Positions 2,959 through 17,578 of a stretch of DNA of 64,000 nt are shown here, piece after piece (the stretch's first letter is position 1; each line of letters starts with the position of its first letter). This stretch comes from a virus. Taxonomy: Duplodnaviria > Heunggongvirae > Uroviricota > Caudoviricetes. The notes under the pieces were generated by a model, which saw nothing but the letters and a program-made list of their open reading frames with translations, did not search any database and had not been told where the DNA came from. The DNA lies in the IMG/VR virus record IMGVR_UViG_3300045988_005753. One strand, written 5' to 3'. The position numbers and the translations under genes are program-made.

Positions 2959-3376
2959 AAGCTCTCCGAATAACCCTATTAAGCATCTCTAAAGTCAGCT
3001 TTCCAGATTCTAAATGTGGCACAATAAGTTTTAAAGCTTTTTCAACATCATGCACAACATCTATTATACCTTCTGCATAGGCTTCTACAAGGATATCTTT
3101 TACATTTTGTGATTTACCTTTTTGTGGTATCACTAGACGCATATCAAACTTATTTGCTTGAGGATGGTTCTTACCTTGCCAATAACCGTCTTTGTTAAAG
3201 CTGATGTAGTCACCGTGGTAAAAGTGTACACCATTAGCTTTAAACTTCTCCAGCACAAGGCATTGAATTGGGTATTCAGTATTCCACTCCCTGACTCCTA
3301 TAACCTTCACTGTTGCGATGTACTCCTGTGTTTTTGCATCTATGATGTCAAGTTCTTGACCAGCTATGATTTGCAT
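2948..3376 (-). CDS. hypothetical protein
   Basis: ATG start; operon-like packing with neighbours. Confidence 0.5.
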   Translation of the reverse strand: MQIIAGQELDIIDAKTQEYIATVKVIGVREWNTEYPIQCLVLEKFKANGVHFYHGDYISFNKDGYWQGKNHPQANKFDMRLVIPQKGKSQNVKDILVEAYAEGIIDVVHDVEKALKLIVPHLESGKLTLEMLNRVIRRAYEN

Positions 3377-10789: not shown

Positions 10790-12205
10790 ATGAGCGAATT
10801 ATTTAAACATGCGCACCTTCATGCAGGTCGAACTGAAAATGGTGCTGTAAACCATACTTCATCAATGTCTGCTCTTGTAGACTTTTACAAAGCTGCTGGT
10901 TCAAGCCGTAGCAATGTAGAAATCTTACCAGACCTGTTCTACAAAGCTTTGCGTGAGGATGTTGATGTTGCAGTTCGTATTTTACTGCATATGCGAGATG
11001 TACGAGAAGGTATGGGTGAGCGTAAAGCCTTCAGAACTGTTTTGCTTCAAGCGATTGAAGATAAAGTTTTAGAGCCTACGCAGGTTCTTCGCATTATGGA
11101 TAAGATTGCAGAGCTTGGTCGTTTTGATGACTTCAAAATCTTTGTAGGTACTCGTTTCGAGACAGATGCCTTCAAGCATTTAGAAGCAGCATTACTAGAC
11201 CCTGCAACAGCAGGTTTGGCAGCTAAGTGGTTACCACGAGTCAAACCACGTCATAAGCAGTTTGTAAAACGTTTCTGCAAGTTTGCAAACTTGAGTGAGA
11301 AAGAGTACCGCACACTGCTGTCTGCACTATCTGATACAGTTGAACAAAAAATATCTGCTAATGAGTTTGGTAAGATTGACTACAGTAAGATTCCTTCACT
11401 TGCTGCTGCACGTTACCAAAAGCTCTTTAACCGTAAAGATGGAGAACGCTACAAAGCTTACATTGAGTCCTTATCAAAGGGCGAGACTAAGATTAATGCT
11501 GGTGCTGTTTATCCATATGATGTGATTAAATCTATCAAGTATGGTAATGCAGATGTTGCTAATGAGCAGTGGAAAGCACTACCAAACTGGATGGCAGAAG
11601 GTGAAAACATCCTGTGTATGACTGATGTTTCAAGCTCAATGTCTTGGGTGAATCTTGGTTCAATCACTGCCCTTGATATTGGTGTATCCCTTGCCTTGTA
11701 TGTAGCAGAACGCAATACAGGTTGTTTTAAGAATGAGTTAATGGTTTATTCAACAAACCCTCATTTCATCGAACTGAGTGGTGATTTACGAAACCGTCAT
11801 CGTCAGGTAATGCGTCATGTTGAATATGGTTCAACTAACTTACAAGCAGCTTTTGACCGCATTCTTGAAATAGGTAAGAGAAACAACTTGACTCAGGAAG
11901 ATATGCCAAGTAAGCTTATCATCTTCTCTGATATGGAGTTCAATCAGGTTGACGGTGCAAATGGTCATACAAACTTTGAAGCAATTCAGAGTAAGTACAA
12001 AAAAGCTGGATATGAGATGCCACAATTGGTATTCTGGTACTTAGCAAACCGTAATGGTACTTGCGAAGTGTCTGTTAAGGATAACGGTGTAGCAATGGTA
12101 TCTGGTTTCTCTCCAGCCACTTTAAAAGCTCTGCTTGGTGGTGAGAAGTTTGACCCAATCAGCGTAATGCTCAAAGCAGTAATGATTGACCGCTATATCT
12201 GGTAA
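10790..12205 (+). CDS. vWA-domain protein, candidate Ro60/TROVE-like RNA-binding protein
   Basis: 471 aa; helical N-terminal part then a DxSxS MIDAS-type motif (DVSSSMS) typical of vWA folds; sits directly upstream of the tRNA array that contains Y-RNA-like elements. Confidence 0.55.
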   Translation: MSELFKHAHLHAGRTENGAVNHTSSMSALVDFYKAAGSSRSNVEILPDLFYKALREDVDVAVRILLHMRDVREGMGERKAFRTVLLQAIEDKVLEPTQVLRIMDKIAELGRFDDFKIFVGTRFETDAFKHLEAALLDPATAGLAAKWLPRVKPRHKQFVKRFCKFANLSEKEYRTLLSALSDTVEQKISANEFGKIDYSKIPSLAAARYQKLFNRKDGERYKAYIESLSKGETKINAGAVYPYDVIKSIKYGNADVANEQWKALPNWMAEGENILCMTDVSSSMSWVNLGSITALDIGVSLALYVAERNTGCFKNELMVYSTNPHFIELSGDLRNRHRQVMRHVEYGSTNLQAAFDRILEIGKRNNLTQEDMPSKLIIFSDMEFNQVDGANGHTNFEAIQSKYKKAGYEMPQLVFWYLANRNGTCEVSVKDNGVAMVSGFSPATLKALLGGEKFDPISVMLKAVMIDRYIW

Positions 12206-12370: not shown

Positions 12371-12447
12371 CTCTGTTTAGCTCAGCTTGGTAGAGCGTTC
12401 CGTTTGGGGCGGTAAGGCCGGAGGTTCAAGTCCTCCAACAGAGACCA
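12371..12447 (+). tRNA. tRNA-Pro (UGG)
   Basis: cloverleaf folded by eye: acceptor CTCTGTT/AACAGAG, T-arm GGAGG-TTCAAGT-CCTCC, encoded CCA. Confidence 0.75.
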
Positions 12448-12454
12448 AATTAAT

Positions 12455-12532
12455 GTTCCAGTAGACAAAATGGTAAAGTCACCACTCTTTCAAAGTGGAT
12501 ATTTGAGGGTTCAAATCCCTTCTGGAACGCCA
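12455..12532 (+). tRNA. tRNA-Glu (UUC)
   Basis: acceptor GTTCCAG/CTGGAAC, anticodon stem CCACT/AGTGG, loop CTTTCAA, CCA. Confidence 0.75.
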
Positions 12533-12537
12533 GTTTT

Positions 12538-12618
12538 GACAGAAGACCAATTACAGCAAACTTAATCTTATTCATCTGAAGGTAAATCGGACAAAGAAGA
12601 GATTTGGTCTGGTCATTA
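12538..12618 (+). ncRNA. stem-bounded structured element A (ACAGAAGACCAATTACAGCAA ... TTGGTCTGG)
   Basis: 5' AGACCAA pairs with 3' TTGGTCT; compensatory changes relative to elements B and C. Confidence 0.4.
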
Positions 12619-12623
12619 AGAAT

Positions 12624-12700
12624 TGCGGGTATAGAGAAAGGGCGTCTCACATGTCTCATTAGCATGGTATCGGCAGGTTCGACTCCTGCACCCGCCTCCA
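12624..12700 (+). tRNA. tRNA-Met-like (CAU), irregular acceptor with a 1:72 mismatch
   Basis: T-arm GCAGG-TTCGACT-CCTGC, anticodon stem CATGT/GCATG, loop CTCATTA, CCA; 5' boundary uncertain. Confidence 0.5.
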
Positions 12701-12705
12701 AATTT

Positions 12706-12776
12706 ACAGAAGACCGTTTACAGCAACATTTATTAAATTTTTAGCGGAAAAATTGAAAGATACGGTCTGGTAATAC
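12706..12776 (+). ncRNA. stem-bounded structured element B (ACAGAAGACCGTTTACAGCAA ... ACGGTCTGG)
   Basis: 5' AGACCGT pairs with 3' ACGGTCT; internal AATTTTT-AGCGG-AAAAATT hairpin. Confidence 0.4.
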
Positions 12777-12783
12777 TAAACAT

Positions 12784-12860
12784 GGTTAGGAAGCACATAA
12801 GGTATGTGCGGTCGCCTGTTAAGCGAATGGCACAGGGTTCGAATCCCTGACTAACCGCCA
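12784..12860 (+). tRNA. tRNA-Asn (GUU)
   Basis: acceptor GGTTAGG/ACTAACC, D-stem GCAC/GTGC, loop CTGTTAA, T-arm CAGGG-TTCGAAT-CCCTG, CCA. Confidence 0.75.
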
Positions 12861-12929
12861 AATTTAGGAGAGAAGCGATTGCTCACCGATTTGTAAGGTG
12901 CAAGTCCTTAGCCTGAATAGAAATTAAAT

Positions 12930-13017
12930 GTGTCGTTATCCCGTAGATGGTAGCGGTGGGGACTGTAAATCCCTTGTCATTGAGACTCGGTAGGTTCGAC
13001 TCCTACACGGCACACCA
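12930..13017 (+). tRNA. tRNA-Tyr (GUA), long variable arm
   Basis: 88 nt; acceptor GTGTCGT/ACGGCAC, loop CTGTAAA, T-arm GTAGG-TTCGACT-CCTAC, CCA. Confidence 0.7.
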
Positions 13018-13022
13018 ATAAA

Positions 13023-13100
13023 GGTTATGTAGTTTAATCTGGTTAAAATACTCCCCTGTCACGGGAGATGATGAGGGTTCAAATCCCTTCGTAACCGCCA
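13023..13100 (+). tRNA. tRNA-Asp (GUC)
   Basis: acceptor GGTTATG/CGTAACC, anticodon stem CTCCC/GGGAG, loop CTGTCAC, CCA. Confidence 0.75.
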
Positions 13101-13124
13101 ATTTTGAGAGGGCTATTTAGCCCC

Positions 13125-13160
13125 TCCCTTAAAGAGTTCTTACGAGTATTCTTTAAAGGA
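13125..13160 (+). other. conserved hairpin (stem CCTTAAAGA/TCTTTAAAGG, loop containing TTCTTACGAG)
   Basis: same hairpin family recurs at 13974-14005 and 16466-16495, each time in a spacer of the tRNA array. Confidence 0.45.
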
Positions 13161-13161
13161 G

Positions 13162-13240
13162 CAGAAGGCCAAATACAGCAAGAATGTATGAAATTTCAAG
13201 CCAATTTAATTTTGAAAATTTAAAACTTGGTCTGGCTCAA
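13162..13240 (+). ncRNA. stem-bounded structured element D (AGAAGGCCAAATACAGCAAG ... TTGGTCTGG)
   Basis: 5' GGCCAA pairs with 3' TTGGTC (one G-U); same ACAGCAA core as A, B and C. Confidence 0.35.
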
Positions 13241-13247
13241 CAAATTT

Positions 13248-13385
13248 ACAGAAGACCGTTTACAGCAAAACTTAAACAATCTATTTCTCCGGTAAAGAAA
13301 AGGCGAAGGTTCGATTCCTTCACTCGGCAGATGTCGAGTTGGTGTAATGGTAGCACTTAAGATGATAAACAACGGTCTGGTAATT
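13248..13385 (+). ncRNA. candidate Y-RNA / YrlA-like tRNA mimic: closing stem around a circularly permuted tRNA-like module
   Basis: order read directly: 5' stem AGACCGTT, T-arm GAAGG-TTCGATT-CCTTC, acceptor 3' strand ACTCGGC, 4-nt loop, acceptor 5' strand GTCGAGT, D-arm GTGT-AATGGTA-GCAC, 3' stem AACGGTCT. Confidence 0.5.
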
Positions 13386-13529
13386 ATCTTTGTAGATAAG
13401 TTATTAAGCTTACCTGTGAGTATGCGACCACAAAGGGTGAATGGGTAAATTCTAGATTTAAACCCAAAAAGGCACATCGCTACAGACCTTAAGCAAGTCT
13501 GGGTAGCTTATCTACAAAGATAATTTAAT

Positions 13530-13605
13530 GGAAGTGTAGCAGAATGGTGATGCGGCAGACTTTTAATCTGACAGGCGATGGGTTCGAATCCCTCCACTTC
13601 TACCA
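13530..13605 (+). tRNA. tRNA-Lys (UUU)
   Basis: acceptor GGAAGTG/CACTTCT, loop CTTTTAA, T-loop TTCGAAT, CCA. Confidence 0.7.
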
Positions 13606-13609
13606 ATAT

Positions 13610-13686
13610 GGTTCAGTCGCAGATAAGGTAATGCAAGGGTCTCATAAGCCCTATGAATGTGGGTTCGATTCCCATCTGAACCTCCA
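13610..13686 (+). tRNA. tRNA-Met or tRNA-Ile2 (CAU)
   Basis: acceptor GGTTCAG/CTGAACC, anticodon stem AGGGT/GCCCT, loop CTCATAA, CCA. Confidence 0.7.
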
Positions 13687-13687
13687 A

Positions 13688-13763
13688 GCTGGTATAGTTA
13701 AGAAGGTTATAACACTCCCCTGATAAGGGAACATCGGTGGTTCGATTCCACCTACCAGTACCA
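13688..13763 (+). tRNA. tRNA-Ile (GAU)
   Basis: acceptor GCTGGTA/TACCAGT, D-stem GTTA/TAAC, loop CTGATAA, T-arm GGTGG-TTCGATT-CCACC, CCA. Confidence 0.7.
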
Positions 13764-13778
13764 ATTTCAATAAAGTTG

Positions 13779-13807
13779 TTGACATTGAGATGTGACTACT
13801 TTATAGT
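13779..13807 (+). promoter_or_regulatory. internal sigma70-type promoter within the tRNA array
   Basis: TTGACA, 17-bp spacer, TATAGT. Confidence 0.5.
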
Positions 13808-13973
13808 AACCTTAGTTTTCGTTGCGTAGCGTCTATTTTGCAAATTTAAAATAAATGCAAACGACAATGTTTTTCTGGCAGTAGCTTGATAGGCTAAACA
13901 CCAGTGAGGTCTTCCAATCCCTCATCAAAGAATTTGGCGTACTCGCCCACGGTATGATTAATAAGGTGGGCAT

Positions 13974-14005
13974 CTTTAAGGACTTTCTAAGAGAGTCTTT
14001 AAAGA
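13974..14005 (+). other. conserved hairpin (stem CTTTAAGGA/TCTTTAAAG, loop CTTTCTAAGAGAG)
   Basis: member of the TTCT(T)A(C/A)GAGAG-loop hairpin family. Confidence 0.45.
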
Positions 14006-14009
14006 TAAT

Positions 14010-14086
14010 GCACCCTTAGTTCAATTGGATAGAGCAACGGTCTTCTAAATCGTTAGTTACAGGTTCGAATCCTGTAGGGTGTACCA
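14010..14086 (+). tRNA. tRNA-Arg (UCU)
   Basis: acceptor GCACCCT/AGGGTGT, anticodon stem ACGGT/ATCGT, loop CTTCTAA, T-arm ACAGG-TTCGAAT-CCTGT, CCA. Confidence 0.75.
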
Positions 14087-14228
14087 AATAGTTAGCAGAT
14101 TACTTAGACTGCCTTAGCGGGTCTTCCTGTAGGGAGGTGGTCTGTATCTCATGTTTTCCAGAACATGTAAATAATCTGAGAAGAAGCTTGACAGTGTTGA
14201 GATAACAGGGTAAGCTTCGAATTATAAT

Positions 14229-14311
14229 ATGGGACGATGTTAAGACTCTAAGGCATGAGCAACGGCCTCCAAAACCGTTTCAAAGGGGTTCAACTCCTCC
14301 GTCCCATGCCA
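14229..14311 (+). tRNA. tRNA-like gene, probably tRNA-Trp (CCA), with an enlarged irregular D-region
   Basis: perfect 7-bp acceptor ATGGGAC/GTCCCAT, T-loop TTCAACT, CCA end, anticodon loop CTCCAAA; 83 nt. Confidence 0.5.
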
Positions 14312-14324
14312 AAGTCTTATTAGG

Positions 14325-14414
14325 GGTAGGTAGCGGCTAATGGCAGCCAAACAGTCTTGAAAACTGTTGCCACTGTAGAGATACGGTGAGGGTTCGACTC
14401 CTTTACTTACCGCC
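14325..14414 (+). tRNA. tRNA-Ser (UGA), long variable arm; CCA apparently not encoded
   Basis: acceptor GGTAGGT/ACTTACC, anticodon stem ACAGT/ACTGT, loop CTTGAAA, T-loop TTCGACT. Confidence 0.65.
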
Positions 14415-14565
14415 TAATAAGATTTACTCCGTCCATGCTTGTTCGCATTGTCGGTTTATCCCTCGTGTATTGTCGTACACTGTCAAAGCACCTAGTAGGT
14501 GTCATGGAGAGAGATAATATCAAGCTCTCCAAAGGTTCTAGTCACCGGATTAAACAAGACTATGC

Positions 14566-14588
14566 AAAGACCTAAATAGGTCTTTTTA
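14566..14588 (+). terminator. rho-independent terminator-like hairpin inside the tRNA array
   Basis: AAGACC-TAAATA-GGTCTT followed by TTTTT. Confidence 0.45.
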
Positions 14589-14591
14589 GAG

Positions 14592-14650
14592 GGCTTCTAA
14601 GGTTATTACAGCTTGTTGTGGAACCTTGTTGCTTAGGTTCTTAGAAGTTC
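14592..14650 (+). other. long hairpin (CTTCTAAGG ... CTTAGAAG)
   Basis: 8-bp inverted repeat around a 40-nt loop; related to the CTAAGG hairpin family. Confidence 0.35.
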
Positions 14651-14666
14651 TCTAAAAAGATTTAAT

Positions 14667-14744
14667 GGGAGATTGACGGTAATTGGTAAACCTACCATCC
14701 TTAGAAGTTGGTGTTTGAGGGTTCGAATCCCTTGTCTCCTACCA
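14667..14744 (+). tRNA. tRNA with anticodon UAG (Leu-type) but a short variable arm
   Basis: acceptor GGGAGAT/GTCTCCT, D-loop AATTGGTAA (Leu-like), anticodon stem CCATC/GTTGG, loop CTTAGAA, A73, CCA; 78 nt. Confidence 0.6.
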
Positions 14745-14751
14745 AATTAAT

Positions 14752-14827
14752 GCAGGTGTAGCAAAATGGTTATGCGGCTGACTCTTAATCAGTAAGACGA
14801 TGGGTTCAATTCCCTCCACCTGTACCA
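14752..14827 (+). tRNA. tRNA-Lys (CUU)
   Basis: acceptor GCAGGTG/CACCTGT, anticodon stem GCTGA/TCAGT, loop CTCTTAA, CCA; close paralog of the Lys(UUU) gene. Confidence 0.7.
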
Positions 14828-14833
14828 AACAAT

Positions 14834-14909
14834 GGGGTCATAGTTTATATGGTTAAAATTCGAGTTTTGCAAACTTGGGAACTGAGTTCAATTCTCAGTG
14901 ACTCCACCA
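14834..14909 (+). tRNA. tRNA-Ala (UGC)
   Basis: acceptor GGGGTCA/TGACTCC, anticodon stem CGAGT/ACTTG, loop TTTGCAA, T-arm CTGAG-TTCAATT-CTCAG, CCA. Confidence 0.75.
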
Positions 14910-14915
14910 ATTAGT

Positions 14916-14990
14916 GCATCCATAGTTTAAACGGGAAAATTACAGTCTTCCAAACTGAGGTTGAGGGTTCGATTCCCTCTGGATGCTCCA
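14916..14990 (+). tRNA. tRNA-Gly (UCC)
   Basis: acceptor GCATCCA/TGGATGC, loop CTTCCAA, T-arm GAGGG-TTCGATT-CCCTC, CCA. Confidence 0.7.
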
Positions 14991-14997
14991 AATTAAT

Positions 14998-15073
14998 GCT
15001 CCTATCGTATAATTGGTTATTACGGTTGCCTTGTAAGCAACTTATCAGGGTTCGAGTCCTTGTGGGAGCACCA
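14998..15073 (+). tRNA. tRNA-Thr (UGU)
   Basis: acceptor GCTCCTA/TGGGAGC, anticodon stem GTTGC/GCAAC, loop CTTGTAA, CCA. Confidence 0.75.
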
Positions 15074-15074
15074 A

Positions 15075-15165
15075 TTCAGAGGTCAAGTGAAAGACCGCTT
15101 TGAGTCAACTGAAGACCGTAACAAATTCCACGGAGTTGAGTTAGCGGCACAACTCCAGACCTCTT
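15075..15165 (+). ncRNA. structured spacer element E (long-range stem CAGAGGTC/GACCTCT, internal hairpin GGAGTTG...CAACTCC, GAAGACCGTAACAA motif)
   Basis: inverted repeats read directly; shares the GAAGACCGT core with elements A-D. Confidence 0.35.
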
Positions 15166-15169
15166 TCAT

Positions 15170-15244
15170 ACTCGCTTAGTTTATATGGTAAAACATCACC
15201 CTTACAAGATGAAGAAAAAGGTTCAAGTCCTTTAGTGAGTACCA
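15170..15244 (+). tRNA. tRNA-Val (UAC)
   Basis: acceptor ACTCGCT/AGTGAGT, D-stem GTTT/AAAC, anticodon stem TCACC/GATGA, loop CTTACAA, CCA. Confidence 0.7.
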
Positions 15245-15245
15245 T

Positions 15246-15323
15246 GTTCCAGTATCCCAATTGGCAGAGGATGCAAGCTCAAACCTTGTATTAGTGACGG
15301 TTCGAATCCGTCTTGGAACACCA
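15246..15323 (+). tRNA. tRNA with anticodon CAA (Leu-type) but a short variable arm
   Basis: acceptor GTTCCAG/TTGGAAC, D-loop AATTGGCAGAG (Leu-like), anticodon stem GCAAG/CTTGT, loop CTCAAAC, A73, CCA. Confidence 0.6.
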
Positions 15324-15328
15324 ATTTT

Positions 15329-15404
15329 GCAGGATTAGTTCAAATGGAAAGAGCAACAGTCTACGAAGCTGTTAATAGGGGTTCGAATCCCTTATCCTGC
15401 GCCA
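15329..15404 (+). tRNA. tRNA-Arg (ACG)
   Basis: acceptor GCAGGAT/ATCCTGC, D-stem GTTC/GAGC, anticodon stem ACAGT/GCTGT, loop CTACGAA, CCA. Confidence 0.75.
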
Positions 15405-15421
15405 GATAAAAAGGTGACACT

Positions 15422-15664
15422 ATGCAAACATTAACAGTAGTTGAACATGAAAACTGTGAGAGTATTGAGTTTGTCAGGGTCATTGGTGTTGAACACCACA
15501 TTTTCTTAAAAGTGGGATACTTATGTGACCCCGCTAGAGTAGAAAGATTTATACGTGATTGTTTTGGTGGTAGACATCTGAAGAGTGTTATTTTTGAGAC
15601 AGTTTTACCAGAAGGTTTAGAAACGAATAATAACATTTACCTCCTTACGAGGATTAGACAATGA
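15422..15664 (+). CDS. hypothetical protein embedded in the tRNA array
   Basis: ATG with AGGTGA RBS; ATGA coupling to the next ORF. Confidence 0.45.
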   Translation: MQTLTVVEHENCESIEFVRVIGVEHHIFLKVGYLCDPARVERFIRDCFGGRHLKSVIFETVLPEGLETNNNIYLLTRIRQ

Positions 15665-16218
15665 GATACTTAAAGTATGCTTCATGGATTTTCTTAGCTT
15701 TGTTAGAGCCATTTGCAGCAATCTTAGCAGTTATCTTAGCACCTTTCGTAGTTCCATTCTACAGTGAGAAGAAAGGACATCTACCTTTCGGGTTCAGATG
15801 GATGGAAACTTATGACAACCCAATTGATGGTGATGAAGGTCACGTTAAAAGATGGGCTAATATTAGATGGATTGGTAAACTAGGTGTCTACATGCAAAGA
15901 GTCGGATGGCTCTGGAGAAACAAAGCTTATAACTTCTCTTACCATGTATTAGGGAGAGATGTAAAAGATGTTACTAAGTGGAAAGGTAATATCAACGTAA
16001 GTTCTGACCCTGAAGATAATCAGACAGGTTATCTCCTAATGTGGAACAGTAATGCTTGGGGATTATTCGCTTTTATCCCATCAATTAAAATCTTTGGTAA
16101 ACAATTTTACTGGAGAATTTATATTGGATGGAAACTAAAAAGTGTTGTCCCAGAAGAAAGAGCATTCTCAAGGGAAAGAGTTATGTTGGCATTCTTTATT
16201 CATCCACTGAGAAAGTAA
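15661..16218 (+). CDS. membrane protein embedded in the tRNA array
   Basis: N-terminal hydrophobic segment WIFLALLEPFAAILAVILAPFVVPF; 185 aa. Confidence 0.5.
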   Translation: MRYLKYASWIFLALLEPFAAILAVILAPFVVPFYSEKKGHLPFGFRWMETYDNPIDGDEGHVKRWANIRWIGKLGVYMQRVGWLWRNKAYNFSYHVLGRDVKDVTKWKGNINVSSDPEDNQTGYLLMWNSNAWGLFAFIPSIKIFGKQFYWRIYIGWKLKSVVPEERAFSRERVMLAFFIHPLRK

Positions 16219-16226
16219 AGATTTAA

Positions 16227-16302
16227 AGGGGATTAGTTTACAAGGTTAAAACCTCGGTCTTTGAAATCGAAGAAGTTGGTTCAATTCCAACATCCCCCGC
16301 CA
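16227..16302 (+). tRNA. tRNA-Gln (UUG)
   Basis: acceptor AGGGGAT/ATCCCCC, anticodon stem TCGGT/ATCGA, loop CTTTGAA, T-arm GTTGG-TTCAATT-CCAAC, CCA. Confidence 0.7.
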
Positions 16303-16304
16303 AT

Positions 16305-16383
16305 GCTCCATTACTCCAATTGGCAGAGAGGCCAGACTTAAAATCTGTGTTATGTATCGGTTCGAATCCGATATGGAGTACCA
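16305..16383 (+). tRNA. tRNA with anticodon UAA (Leu-type) but a short variable arm
   Basis: acceptor GCTCCAT/ATGGAGT, D-loop AATTGGCAGAG (Leu-like), loop CTTAAAA, T-arm ATCGG-TTCGAAT-CCGAT, A73, CCA. Confidence 0.6.
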
Positions 16384-16388
16384 AATTT

Positions 16389-16464
16389 AGCGGTATAGCA
16401 TAACTGGCAATGCAGCAGTCTCTGAAGCTGTCTTATTAAGGTTCAAATCCTTATGCCGCTGCCA
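16389..16464 (+). tRNA. tRNA-Gln (CUG)
   Basis: acceptor AGCGGTA/TGCCGCT, anticodon stem GCAGT/GCTGT, loop CTCTGAA, CCA. Confidence 0.65.
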
Positions 16465-16465
16465 C

Positions 16466-16495
16466 TTCTAAGGATTCTTACGAGAGTCCTTAAAT
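16466..16495 (+). other. conserved hairpin (stem TAAGGA/TCCTTA, loop TTCTTACGAGAG)
   Basis: member of the TTCTTACGAG-loop hairpin family. Confidence 0.45.
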
Positions 16496-16571
16496 GTGGC
16501 CTTATCATAAATGGTAATGACCCATGCTGTGAACATGGTCTATACGGGTTCAAATCCCGTAGGTCACCCCA
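16496..16571 (+). tRNA. tRNA-His (GUG)
   Basis: acceptor GTGGCCT/AGGTCAC, D-stem TCAT/ATGA, anticodon stem CCATG/CATGG, loop CTGTGAA, CCA. Confidence 0.75.
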
Positions 16572-16576
16572 ATTTA

Positions 16577-16653
16577 TAGTCCAAGTAGCTTATATGGTTA
16601 AAGCGCGTGTCTGAAAAACATGAGAAGAGGGTTCAAATCCCACTGGACTACCA
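16577..16653 (+). tRNA. tRNA-Phe (GAA)
   Basis: acceptor TAGTCCA/TGGACTA, anticodon stem CGTGT/ACATG, loop CTGAAAA, T-loop TTCAAAT, CCA; 5' end uncertain by 1 nt. Confidence 0.65.
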
Positions 16654-16669
16654 ATTTCAAAGGTGCTTA

Positions 16670-17404
16670 ATGAAAGAGATGACAGAACAAGGTAAGGAGA
16701 TTTTTAATCTCTTAAAAACTGGTAAAGGGTTTTCTAACCCCCTTATTACTGGTGCAGCAGTTCTCGGTGGAACCGTAGCTGCCTCCACATCACTTGTAAG
16801 CTCTATTAGTTCTGTATCAGACCCTACAGTAAAAGATAAGCTTGTTGCTGCTGGACTTACAACAGTTCTGCTTAACAGCTTTACCACGAGTCTGACAAGC
16901 ACTACATCAACTACCAAAACACTGACAGATTACGGTCAAAAGTCCATTGATGAGTTTTCATCACGTATGCAGGTAGCAAAAGGTTATTCTAATGTTATGG
17001 GTGCAGCAGGTGAACAAGTTGGCTGTACACCATTTAGTGGTATTATGGGTGTTGCTACAGAGTATGGTCAAAAAGCTATTGATACGATTAACAGTGCACT
17101 AGACGGTGTTAATGATGTATTAAGTGATTTACAAGACGCTATTGACAAAGGTCTTGATACTATTTCTGATTTAGCTAACCAAGCTGTTAGTAAGATTAAT
17201 GAAGGTATCTCGAAGATTACAGCTTATGCAGATGAAGTTGTGCAGATGATTGAAGAAGAAGCTGCCCTTATTGCAGAGTACCTTAAAACGAATATCAATG
17301 GGTTCTTAGCAGGTATCTTACCAGACTGGTTTGATGATGCTTGTAAAACTGGTGTAATTGACACTATTGCAACACCAGAAATGAAGAACGCATTACAGAA
17401 ATAA
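16670..17404 (+). CDS. hypothetical Ser/Thr-rich protein
   Basis: track ORF starts inside tRNA-Phe; first ATG downstream of the tRNA (16670) has an AAAGGTG RBS. Confidence 0.5.
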   Translation: MKEMTEQGKEIFNLLKTGKGFSNPLITGAAVLGGTVAASTSLVSSISSVSDPTVKDKLVAAGLTTVLLNSFTTSLTSTTSTTKTLTDYGQKSIDEFSSRMQVAKGYSNVMGAAGEQVGCTPFSGIMGVATEYGQKAIDTINSALDGVNDVLSDLQDAIDKGLDTISDLANQAVSKINEGISKITAYADEVVQMIEEEAALIAEYLKTNINGFLAGILPDWFDDACKTGVIDTIATPEMKNALQK

Positions 17405-17405
17405 T

Positions 17406-17498
17406 GGAAGATTAACCCTAAAAGGTAAGGGAGCAGTTTGCTAAACTGCCAGTAGCTGAGAAATCGGTGTACCAGTTCAAGTCTGGTATCTTCCTCCA
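17406..17498 (+). tRNA. tRNA-Ser (GCU), long variable arm
   Basis: 93 nt; acceptor GGAAGAT/ATCTTCC, anticodon stem GCAGT/ACTGC, loop TTGCTAA, T-arm ACCAG-TTCAAGT-CTGGT, CCA. Confidence 0.7.
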
Positions 17499-17502
17499 AT
17501 TT

Positions 17503-17578
17503 GAATCCGTGACAGAAATGGCTATGTGCCTGTCTGCAAAACAGGTTTATAAGGGTTCGAGTCCCTTCGGATTCTCCA
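17503..17578 (+). tRNA. tRNA-Cys (GCA)
   Basis: acceptor GAATCCG/CGGATTC, anticodon stem CCTGT/ACAGG, loop CTGCAAA, T-arm AAGGG-TTCGAGT-CCCTT, CCA. Confidence 0.75.

Follow-up and report, generated by a model that had tools for sequence, protein, structure and literature searches.

A putative tRNA-Trp gene with a nine-nucleotide acceptor/D connector in the tRNA cluster of Felix O1-like phages

Introduction

Felix O1-like phages are classic typing phages of Salmonella and E. coli with therapeutic uses as well, and their tRNA sets have been subject to repeated analysis. The acceptor and D stems of a tRNA are usually joined by a connector of two nucleotides (U8, N9), and the region of this junction controls the bending of tRNA in decoding. 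Altered acceptor/T splits, connectors and D arms are compatible with function in tRNA-Sec (8/5), tRNA-Pyl and the allo-tRNAs (8/4 and 9/3). We know of no natural tRNA that works on the ribosome with an acceptor/D connector of 9 nt.

Bacterial tryptophan identity resides in G73, the anticodon, the first acceptor pair and the pairs G3-C70, G4-C69 and G5-C68 (PMC9976931). Variants of tRNA-Trp(CCA), such as Hirsh G24A, A9C and those with 4-bp anticodon stems, indicate that TrpRS and the ribosome tolerate changes in the tRNA body, be they at position 9, in the D stem or at either end of the anticodon stem (PMC13092985). Bottom-unpinned anticodon stems have also been reported in 267 bacterial tRNA-Trp genes, whose decoding is unstudied, and an effect on decoding has been demonstrated for top-unpinned stems only (PMC13092985). 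In a 2026 preprint, tryptophan is described as the sole gap in the tRNA sets of the Ounavirinae (PMC13015707), and the paper on the Felix O1 genome reports 22 tRNAs and never mentions Trp or tryptophan in its text (PMC3185647). Here, we describe an 83-nt element in the tRNA cluster of such a phage and compare it with these systems.

The tRNA cluster and the 83-nt element

The DNA analysed, referred to as the window, is a stretch of 64,000 nucleotides that belongs to a Felixounavirus (Ounavirinae) and is 98.7% identical to Escherichia phage dune over positions 14000-14700. ARAGORN finds 26 tRNAs for 19 amino acids in a cluster at 12371-17578, with Trp alone missing, and the whole dune genome has 25 tRNAs, none of them for Trp. 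The E. coli host has a single trpT gene. The 83-nt element lies on the plus strand and ends, as do 25 of the 26 neighbouring tRNAs, with an encoded CCA; no ORF of at least 40 aa overlaps it. Sigma-70-like promoter matches occur at 13779-13807 (strong) and 14197-14225 (weak). Written as RNA and divided by its parts, the element reads AUGGGAC-GAUGUUAAG-ACUC-UAAGGCAU-GAGC-A-ACGGC-CUCCAAA-ACCGU-UUCAA-AGGGG-UUCAACU-CCUCC-GUCCCAU-G-CCA. The features of the locus are as follows:

14125..14228 (+), conserved leader of about 100 nt, with a core GGAGGTGGTCTGTATCTC, a hairpin ATGTTTTCCAGAACAT and a second hairpin AAGCTT...AAGCTT
14229..14311 (+), whole gene of 83 nt, a putative non-canonical tRNA-Trp(CCA), the long-connector allele, scoring 111 bits with CM R1
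14229..14236 (+), 5' strand of the acceptor stem, ATGGGAC plus G14236, which pairs with 14300-14307; the first pair is A1-U72
14237..14245 (+), connector or insert AUGUUAAGA, invariant in 15/15 distinct homologues in which the stems have turned over
14246..14259 (+), D arm, with the stem CTC (14246-14248)/GAG (14257-14259) and the loop TAAGGCAT, in which GG (14252-14253) is conserved
14261..14279 (+), anticodon arm, AACGG/CCGTT (14261-14265 with 14275-14279), C14266.A14274 unpaired, core CTCCAAA
14280..14284 (+), variable region TCAAA (5 nt), invariant in the homologue alignment
14285..14299 (+), T arm, with the stem GGGG/CCTC and the loop TTCAACT, which follows the T54 Psi55 C56 R57 A58 pattern
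14300..14311 (+), 3' strand of the acceptor, C14300 plus GTCCCAT, then the discriminator G14308 and the encoded CCA (14309-14311)

Several neighbouring features are recorded here in their own right. Alone among the tRNAs of the cluster, the tRNA-Ser(UGA) at 14325-14414 does not encode CCA (its end is GCC-T), and it scores poorly, at 31 bits with RF00005 and 37 bits with tRNA-Sec; its homologue in Pectobacterium phage Wc4-1 (L008:~3103-3195) is uncalled by ARAGORN, and the Wc4-1 annotation appears to lack tRNA-Ser as well as tRNA-Trp. Within the 13100-13530 gap, tRNA remnants lie at 13272-13360. A 3' half with an anticodon arm and a perfect T arm (a partial RF00005 match of 22 bits) ends in ACTCGGC and is followed, four bases later, by GTCGAGT and a 5' half with a D-like arm; the acceptor strands of the two halves complement each other, and the arrangement as read from the sequence resembles that of a permuted or tandem-deleted tRNA. 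Just upstream of the cluster, a 471-aa protein (10790-12205, +) with DUF2828, DUF7788 and a weak VWA match is annotated as 'vWFA protein' in dune and as 'RNA-binding protein' in Yersinia phage P778. Additionally, the records GU169904.1 (Staphylococcus phage SA1) and MG065664.1 (Campylobacter phage A132) contain Felixounavirus tRNA-cluster DNA at ~94% identity, and both are probably contaminated or mislabelled.

Architecture of the element

An earlier note on this DNA had described a tRNA-like gene with the anticodon CCA (Trp), a perfect acceptor stem and T arm, and 26 nt between the acceptor and anticodon stems. The acceptor stem is as it was read, with ATGGGAC (14229-14235) and GTCCCAT (14301-14307) forming 7 bp ahead of the CCA end, and the anticodon CCA occupies 14269-14271, inside the loop CTCCAAA (14267-14273). 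The spacing before ACGGC is likewise exactly 26 nt (14236-14261), against 18-22 nt in canonical tRNAs. The T arm is less than perfect, since its stem consists of G-C, G.U, G-C and G-C, four pairs of which one is a wobble, and its fifth position is A14284.C14300. Furthermore, the anticodon stem that had been proposed (ACGGC/ACCGT) is unpaired at its closing position, C14266.A14274.

An enlarged D arm of a tRNA had been one of the readings offered for this spacing. The assignment to tRNA-Trp is supported, but the D arm is not enlarged; the extra bases, about 7 nt, sit at the acceptor/D junction, in a linker of 9 nt (GAUGUUAAG; 9-10 nt with G14236) that is found in 15/15 distinct homologues, and position 8 is G rather than U in 14 of these. 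Compared with a class I cloverleaf, the element has the 7-bp acceptor stem, the discriminator base and the 3' CCA, as well as a D arm with a 3-bp stem and an invariant GG in its loop, but it does not have the two-nucleotide connector (U8, N9).

The division between the acceptor and T stems allows two choices. C14300 can pair with G14236 instead of facing A14284, which lengthens the acceptor to 8 bp and leaves a T stem of 4 bp. The pair G14236-C14300 is G-C in 14 sequences and U.G in a divergent metagenomic copy (L266); RNAalifold favours the 8/4 split, and the U.G variant agrees with it. The acceptor/T stack comprises 12 layers, either 7+5 with A49.C65 or 8+4 with G8-C65. The D/anticodon stack comprises 10 layers, namely three D pairs, A.C at 10.25, five Watson-Crick pairs (26-44 to 30-40) and the unpaired 31.39, such that the stacked-layer count of the predicted fold is canonical. 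Position 10.25 is always A.C among the homologues, and 31.39 is never Watson-Crick in the 15 distinct sequences, where it appears as C.A, C.C or A.C. The five covarying pairs of the anticodon stem lie one position away from the standard register, at 26-44 to 30-40 instead of 27-43 to 31-39; hence, the anticodon loop, in which U33 is present, can be counted as 9 nt or as 7 nt with a mismatch closing it.

The connector GAUGUUAAG aligns with U8-A9-G10-U11-U12-C13-A14-A15 of the E. coli and phiEa21-4 tRNA-Trp, and in the same alignment the segment A-CUC-UAA-GG that follows it is the working 5' strand of the D stem. Judged from this alignment, the 5' half of the D arm appears to have undergone a short tandem duplication, with the ancestral copy (A-GUU-AA) retained as the insert. 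Because the insert and the variable loop UCAAA are both invariant and both located in the tRNA core, they suggest a specific tertiary module or a recognition surface.

Two other pairings of this region were considered and rejected, the first of them as the main fold. A helix between AUGUU of the insert and GGCAU of the D loop is pair-compatible in 14/15 sequences; however, it changes on one side only, is broken in L266, is 3-10 kcal/mol worse than the cloverleaf with the D stem and is sterically incompatible with the covarying D stem, as no linker would separate the two 3' strands. A D stem of the ancestral type (GUU/AGC), taken from the Rfam tRNA-Sec alignment, is broken in the Mooglevirus, Wc4-1, L271 and L266 sequences.

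Conservation and covariation

The CM R1 search returned 39 copies of the element in phage and metagenome loci, 15 of them distinct. It is present in 238 phage records, which cover Felixounavirus, Mooglevirus, Suspvirus, the Pectobacterium Wc4 group and Yersinia phage P778, and two far more divergent copies lie on metagenomic tRNA-cluster contigs (L271 and L266), of which the former has two acceptor-stem mismatches. No bacterial homologue was found in a GTDB genome scan for the insert, which gave six matches, none of them tRNA-like, and two permissive IMG/VR pattern scans for the insert gave almost only chance matches.

Folding of the single sequence is not significant alone (z = -1.39), and the element is recognised as more than chance because its homologues covary. 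A MAFFT alignment of 10 distinct sequences, made blind to structure, has standard pairs in 100% of cells over the 19 proposed pairs and both-sided changes at 8 of these pairs. The alignment of the 15 distinct homologues, which was fitted to the structure model and is biased toward that structure, displays compensatory changes at 13/20 stem pairs, distributed over all four helices (both-sided changes at 5/8 pairs in the acceptor, 3/3 in the D stem, 4/5 in the anticodon stem and 1 in the T stem), and standard pairs account for 98-100% of cells in each helix over the 20 stem pairs. The observed covariation was reached by 0/500 column shuffles, and register-shift controls produced 0-4 covarying pairs compared with 13. 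RNAalifold, on its own, predicts the same cloverleaf for the homologues. Thus, the comparison of homologues that had been proposed as a check supports a shared cloverleaf. Among the variants are D stems of CUC/GAG, CAC/GUG, CGU/ACG and GUA/UGC and a T-stem pair, equivalent to 50-64, that varies between G-C, U-A and A-U. The invariant positions are AUGUUAAGA, the GG of the D loop, U33-CCA-A37A38, the variable loop UCAAA, the T-loop UUCRA, G73 and the CCA; beyond the latter, the 3' trailers diverge among homologues. The 83-nt element is a conserved cloverleaf RNA gene under structural selection.

A decaying tRNA-Trp pseudogene, one of the readings offered by the earlier note, or conservation at the level of DNA, as a homing-endonuclease target or a processing spacer, would accord with the rejection of the element by tRNA finders, with the existence of tRNA remnants in the cluster (13272-13360) and with the homing endonuclease genes that are inserted at or beside the locus in relatives. 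However, compensatory double substitutions preserve the helices across genera and in the two very divergent metagenomic contigs, the element can still be aligned where its flanking DNA has diverged beyond recognition, and a constraint on DNA does not predict the covariation of RNA helices. The conservation of the element also equals that of neighbouring tRNAs, with 73% identity to the copy of Wc4-1 compared with 55-90% for the 23 ordinary tRNAs common to both phages. A pseudogene or a DNA-level signal is therefore very improbable.

Detection by tRNA gene finders

ARAGORN, which had been suggested as a check for a clean canonical fold, makes no call at 14229-14311 even with thresholds relaxed to 60% (-ps60), and its intron option combined with lowered thresholds yields spurious calls only. 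Rfam RF00005 does not match the element at the gathering score. The best match within the clan is tRNA-Sec (RF01852), at 23 bits against a cut-off of 47; tRNA-Sec identity was rejected on this score, on the anticodon, which is CCA and not UCA, and on the variable region of only 5 nt. When 6 nt of the connector (e.g., UUAAGA) are removed in silico, ARAGORN calls a tRNA-Trp(cca).

The sampled GenBank records carry no tRNA annotation at this locus, including those of Sf14 and ESh20, which were annotated with tRNAscan-SE, and the literature searched contains no description of the gene. Neither a Y-RNA nor another Rfam family was seen at or near the element. In ancestry and presumed function it belongs with tRNA-Trp; by its connector length and by the thresholds of the models, it breaks the canonical class I cloverleaf definition. 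If the element works as a tRNA, it would exemplify the phage genes that are systematically overlooked by finders trained on canonical cloverleaves, the tRNA set of Felix O1-like phages would be complete, and studies of repertoire and codon usage in ~240 genomes would be missing one gene.

Alternative alleles at the tRNA-Trp locus

The leader (14125-14228) is single-copy in the window and matches no Rfam family. In relatives it lies directly upstream of either of two Trp alleles, one of 83 nt and one of 71 nt, and it is also present in the metagenomic contig L271 and upstream of a tRNA-Gly/tRNA-Trp pair in phiEa21-4; it is absent from Wc4-1 and P778. In 23 Ounavirinae records from three genera, the leader is followed by the 71-nt tRNA-Trp(CCA) with a reduced D arm, the carriers including wV8, the O157 typing phages 8, 11, 12 and 15, SUSP1, Sf19 and VpaE1_ev78. 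This allele (L283:2536-2606; L284, L285 and L286:1509-1579) is called by ARAGORN and labelled tRNA-Trp, tRNA-OTHER or pseudo in GenBank. In 4/4 loci examined, a 134-aa gene follows it directly, annotated in 3/4 as an HNH endonuclease or a predicted endonuclease, with weak Pfam HNH matches, and none of the four loci has an 83-nt copy. Together, the 71-nt allele and the 134-aa gene resemble a homing-endonuclease cassette that has taken the place of the 83-nt allele.

A third form occurs in Kolesnikvirus phiEa21-4, whose tRNA cluster contains no 83-nt copy and has a 76-nt tRNA-Trp (NC_011811 24578-24653) between tRNA-Gly and tRNA-Thr; these two genes are adjacent in the window. Each cluster examined has exactly one gene with a Trp anticodon, in one of the three forms.

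Other observations concern the same relatives. The phiEa21-4 tRNA-Trp (L253:24578-24653) has three Watson-Crick pairs in its anticodon stem, with U27.C43 and C31.A39 mismatched, and is without an encoded CCA (it ends G-UCA); it may be relevant to work on tRNA-Trp with 4-bp anticodon stems and the reading of UGA. In the same phage, an unannotated tRNA-like element of ~86 nt (L253:23959-24044) follows tRNA-Arg(TCT); its acceptor is AGTGATT/AATCACT, and it has a T arm, ends in ...GCCA and scores only 18 bits with R1. At the position of tRNA-Arg(TCT) in VpaE1_ev78, an 82-nt tRNA-like gene (L283:1949-2030) with a TCT anticodon and a long variable arm seems to lack a D stem; ARAGORN makes no call there, and a second HNH-type endonuclease gene follows.

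The allelic exchange bears on whether the element acts in translation at all. A tRNA-like RNA that is processed as a tRNA could instead serve as a decoy or inhibitor of a host tRNA-targeting nuclease or of TrpRS, or as a regulator, the last version being modelled on the Bacillus cereus pseudo-tRNA 'tRNA-Other'. The invariance of the 9-nt insert suggests that something outside the translation apparatus recognises its sequence, and G8, the A.C position, the unpaired 31.39 and the failure of all tRNA models are consistent with such a role, for which a predicted pseudo-tRNA with a non-translational function is a precedent (PMC3399842). As circumstantial points in favour of a decoy, Retron Eco2 nicks the acceptor stems of tRNAs, including tRNA-Trp, and gives no protection against most species of Felixounavirus (PMC12916289). 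Nevertheless, a decoy has no need of an invariant CCA anticodon, U33, A37A38, G73, A1-U72 and an encoded CCA, the element fills the sole gap in the tRNA set, and at the same locus it is swapped for a tRNA-Trp that software recognises. A non-translational role is thus unlikely, and the regulatory RNA envisaged by the earlier note is less likely than a tRNA-Trp.

Proposed function

The element is best explained as a functional, structurally new tRNA-Trp allele that would be charged by host TrpRS and would be the only tRNA-Trp of the phage, a reading from sequence to which we assign a probability of roughly 65%. We favour it because of the covariation, the identity elements, the otherwise complete tRNA set and the allelic replacement by another tRNA-Trp. 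The anticodon C34 C35 A36 is invariant in the 39 copies (15 distinct), and the gene in the window has A1-U72, G3-C70, G4-C69 and G5-C68, but U2-A71 where bacteria have G2-C71; in some homologues, the 1-72 pair is G-C or G.U. The points against a function as tRNA-Trp are G8 in 14/15 sequences, the open 31-39, the A.C at 10-25, U2-A71 and the failure of the models.

The gene would be co-transcribed with the cluster from the sigma-70-like promoters, cut by RNase P at A14229 and trimmed by exonucleases at its 3' end to the encoded CCA. Host TrpRS would presumably charge the product by recognising its anticodon, G73 and first acceptor pairs, since these are the elements on which bacterial Trp identity rests (PMC9976931), and the charged tRNA could decode UGG and supplement the single-copy trpT of the host during infection.

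It is a far weaker proposition that the remodelled body of a charged tRNA-Trp alters decoding, for example, by reading UGA beside UGG, and we regard this as highly unlikely. The region in which A9C and G24A exert their effects is the one altered in the element, with the insert lying at the 9/10 junction and a D stem weakened to only 3 bp plus A.C, and the anticodon stem has only four canonical pairs; a tRNA-Trp(CCA) whose stem has 4 bp raises UGA read-through in E. coli (PMC13092985). In the element, however, the open pair is the bottom one (31-39) and not the top one (27-43), 26-44 is an additional Watson-Crick pair and G24 is kept. A screen of long ORFs in the window revealed no convincing conserved in-frame extension after TGA stops, TGA is an ordinary stop in 14/70 long ORFs of the window, and it serves as an ordinary stop at 25.5% in UAB_Phi87 (PMC4837284).

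Returning to the tRNA-Trp reading, the long connector could represent a new, ribosome-competent tRNA body plan in which the invariant AUGUUAAGA module has a dedicated function beyond carrying Trp, although we hold this stronger version to be doubtful. The module might hide the phage tRNA-Trp from a host tRNA-targeting nuclease, or, by analogy with the D-arm and anticodon-stem variants of tRNA-Trp, it might tune UGA/UGG decoding. A second Trp allele with a remodelled D arm (71 nt) exists in parallel at this locus, a hint that in these phages the tRNA-Trp D region is contested. No meaningful plus-strand target emerged when the window was searched for complements of the insert. If the tRNA-Trp reading is true, the gene would be a natural and strongly conserved case of a tRNA accommodating 7 extra nt at the acceptor/D junction, and it would offer a test case for the extent to which the tRNA core can be rebuilt.

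Comparison with known tRNAs

The closest counterparts of the 83-nt gene are the tRNA-Trp of E. coli (trpT) and that of phiEa21-4, with which it has in common the CUCCAAA loop, G73, A1-U72 and G3-G5 paired with C68-C70, as well as the D-stem strand GAGC followed by A26 (as in E. coli), the GG and UUCRA. The phiEa21-4 gene furthermore has the same GGC-CUCCAAA-ACC, including C31.A39. Canonical tRNA-Trp, in contrast, has 76 nt and U8-N9, whereas the 83-nt gene has a 9-nt connector and G8; the latter also differs in its 3-bp D stem with A.C, in the Watson-Crick pair 26-44, in the open 31-39, in a possible 8/4 acceptor/T split and in being undetected by tRNA models. The unpaired 31.39 has natural precedents.

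The 71-nt allele resembles the 83-nt gene in its locus and leader, anticodon, G73, A1-U72, CCA end and atypical D region. Its D arm is reduced (a stem of ~3 bp and a 5-nt loop) and not expanded, its anticodon stem has 5 bp including U31-A39, and it is recognised by ARAGORN.

Further afield, the Hirsh G24A, A9C and 4-bp-stem variants are point changes, none of which involves a multi-nucleotide insertion between the acceptor and D stems as in the 83-nt gene. Similarly, tRNA-Sec, tRNA-Pyl and the allo-tRNAs differ from it in that their connectors are shortened to 1-2 nt, their variable arms are long or their D stems have 6 bp, and their anticodons and identities are different.
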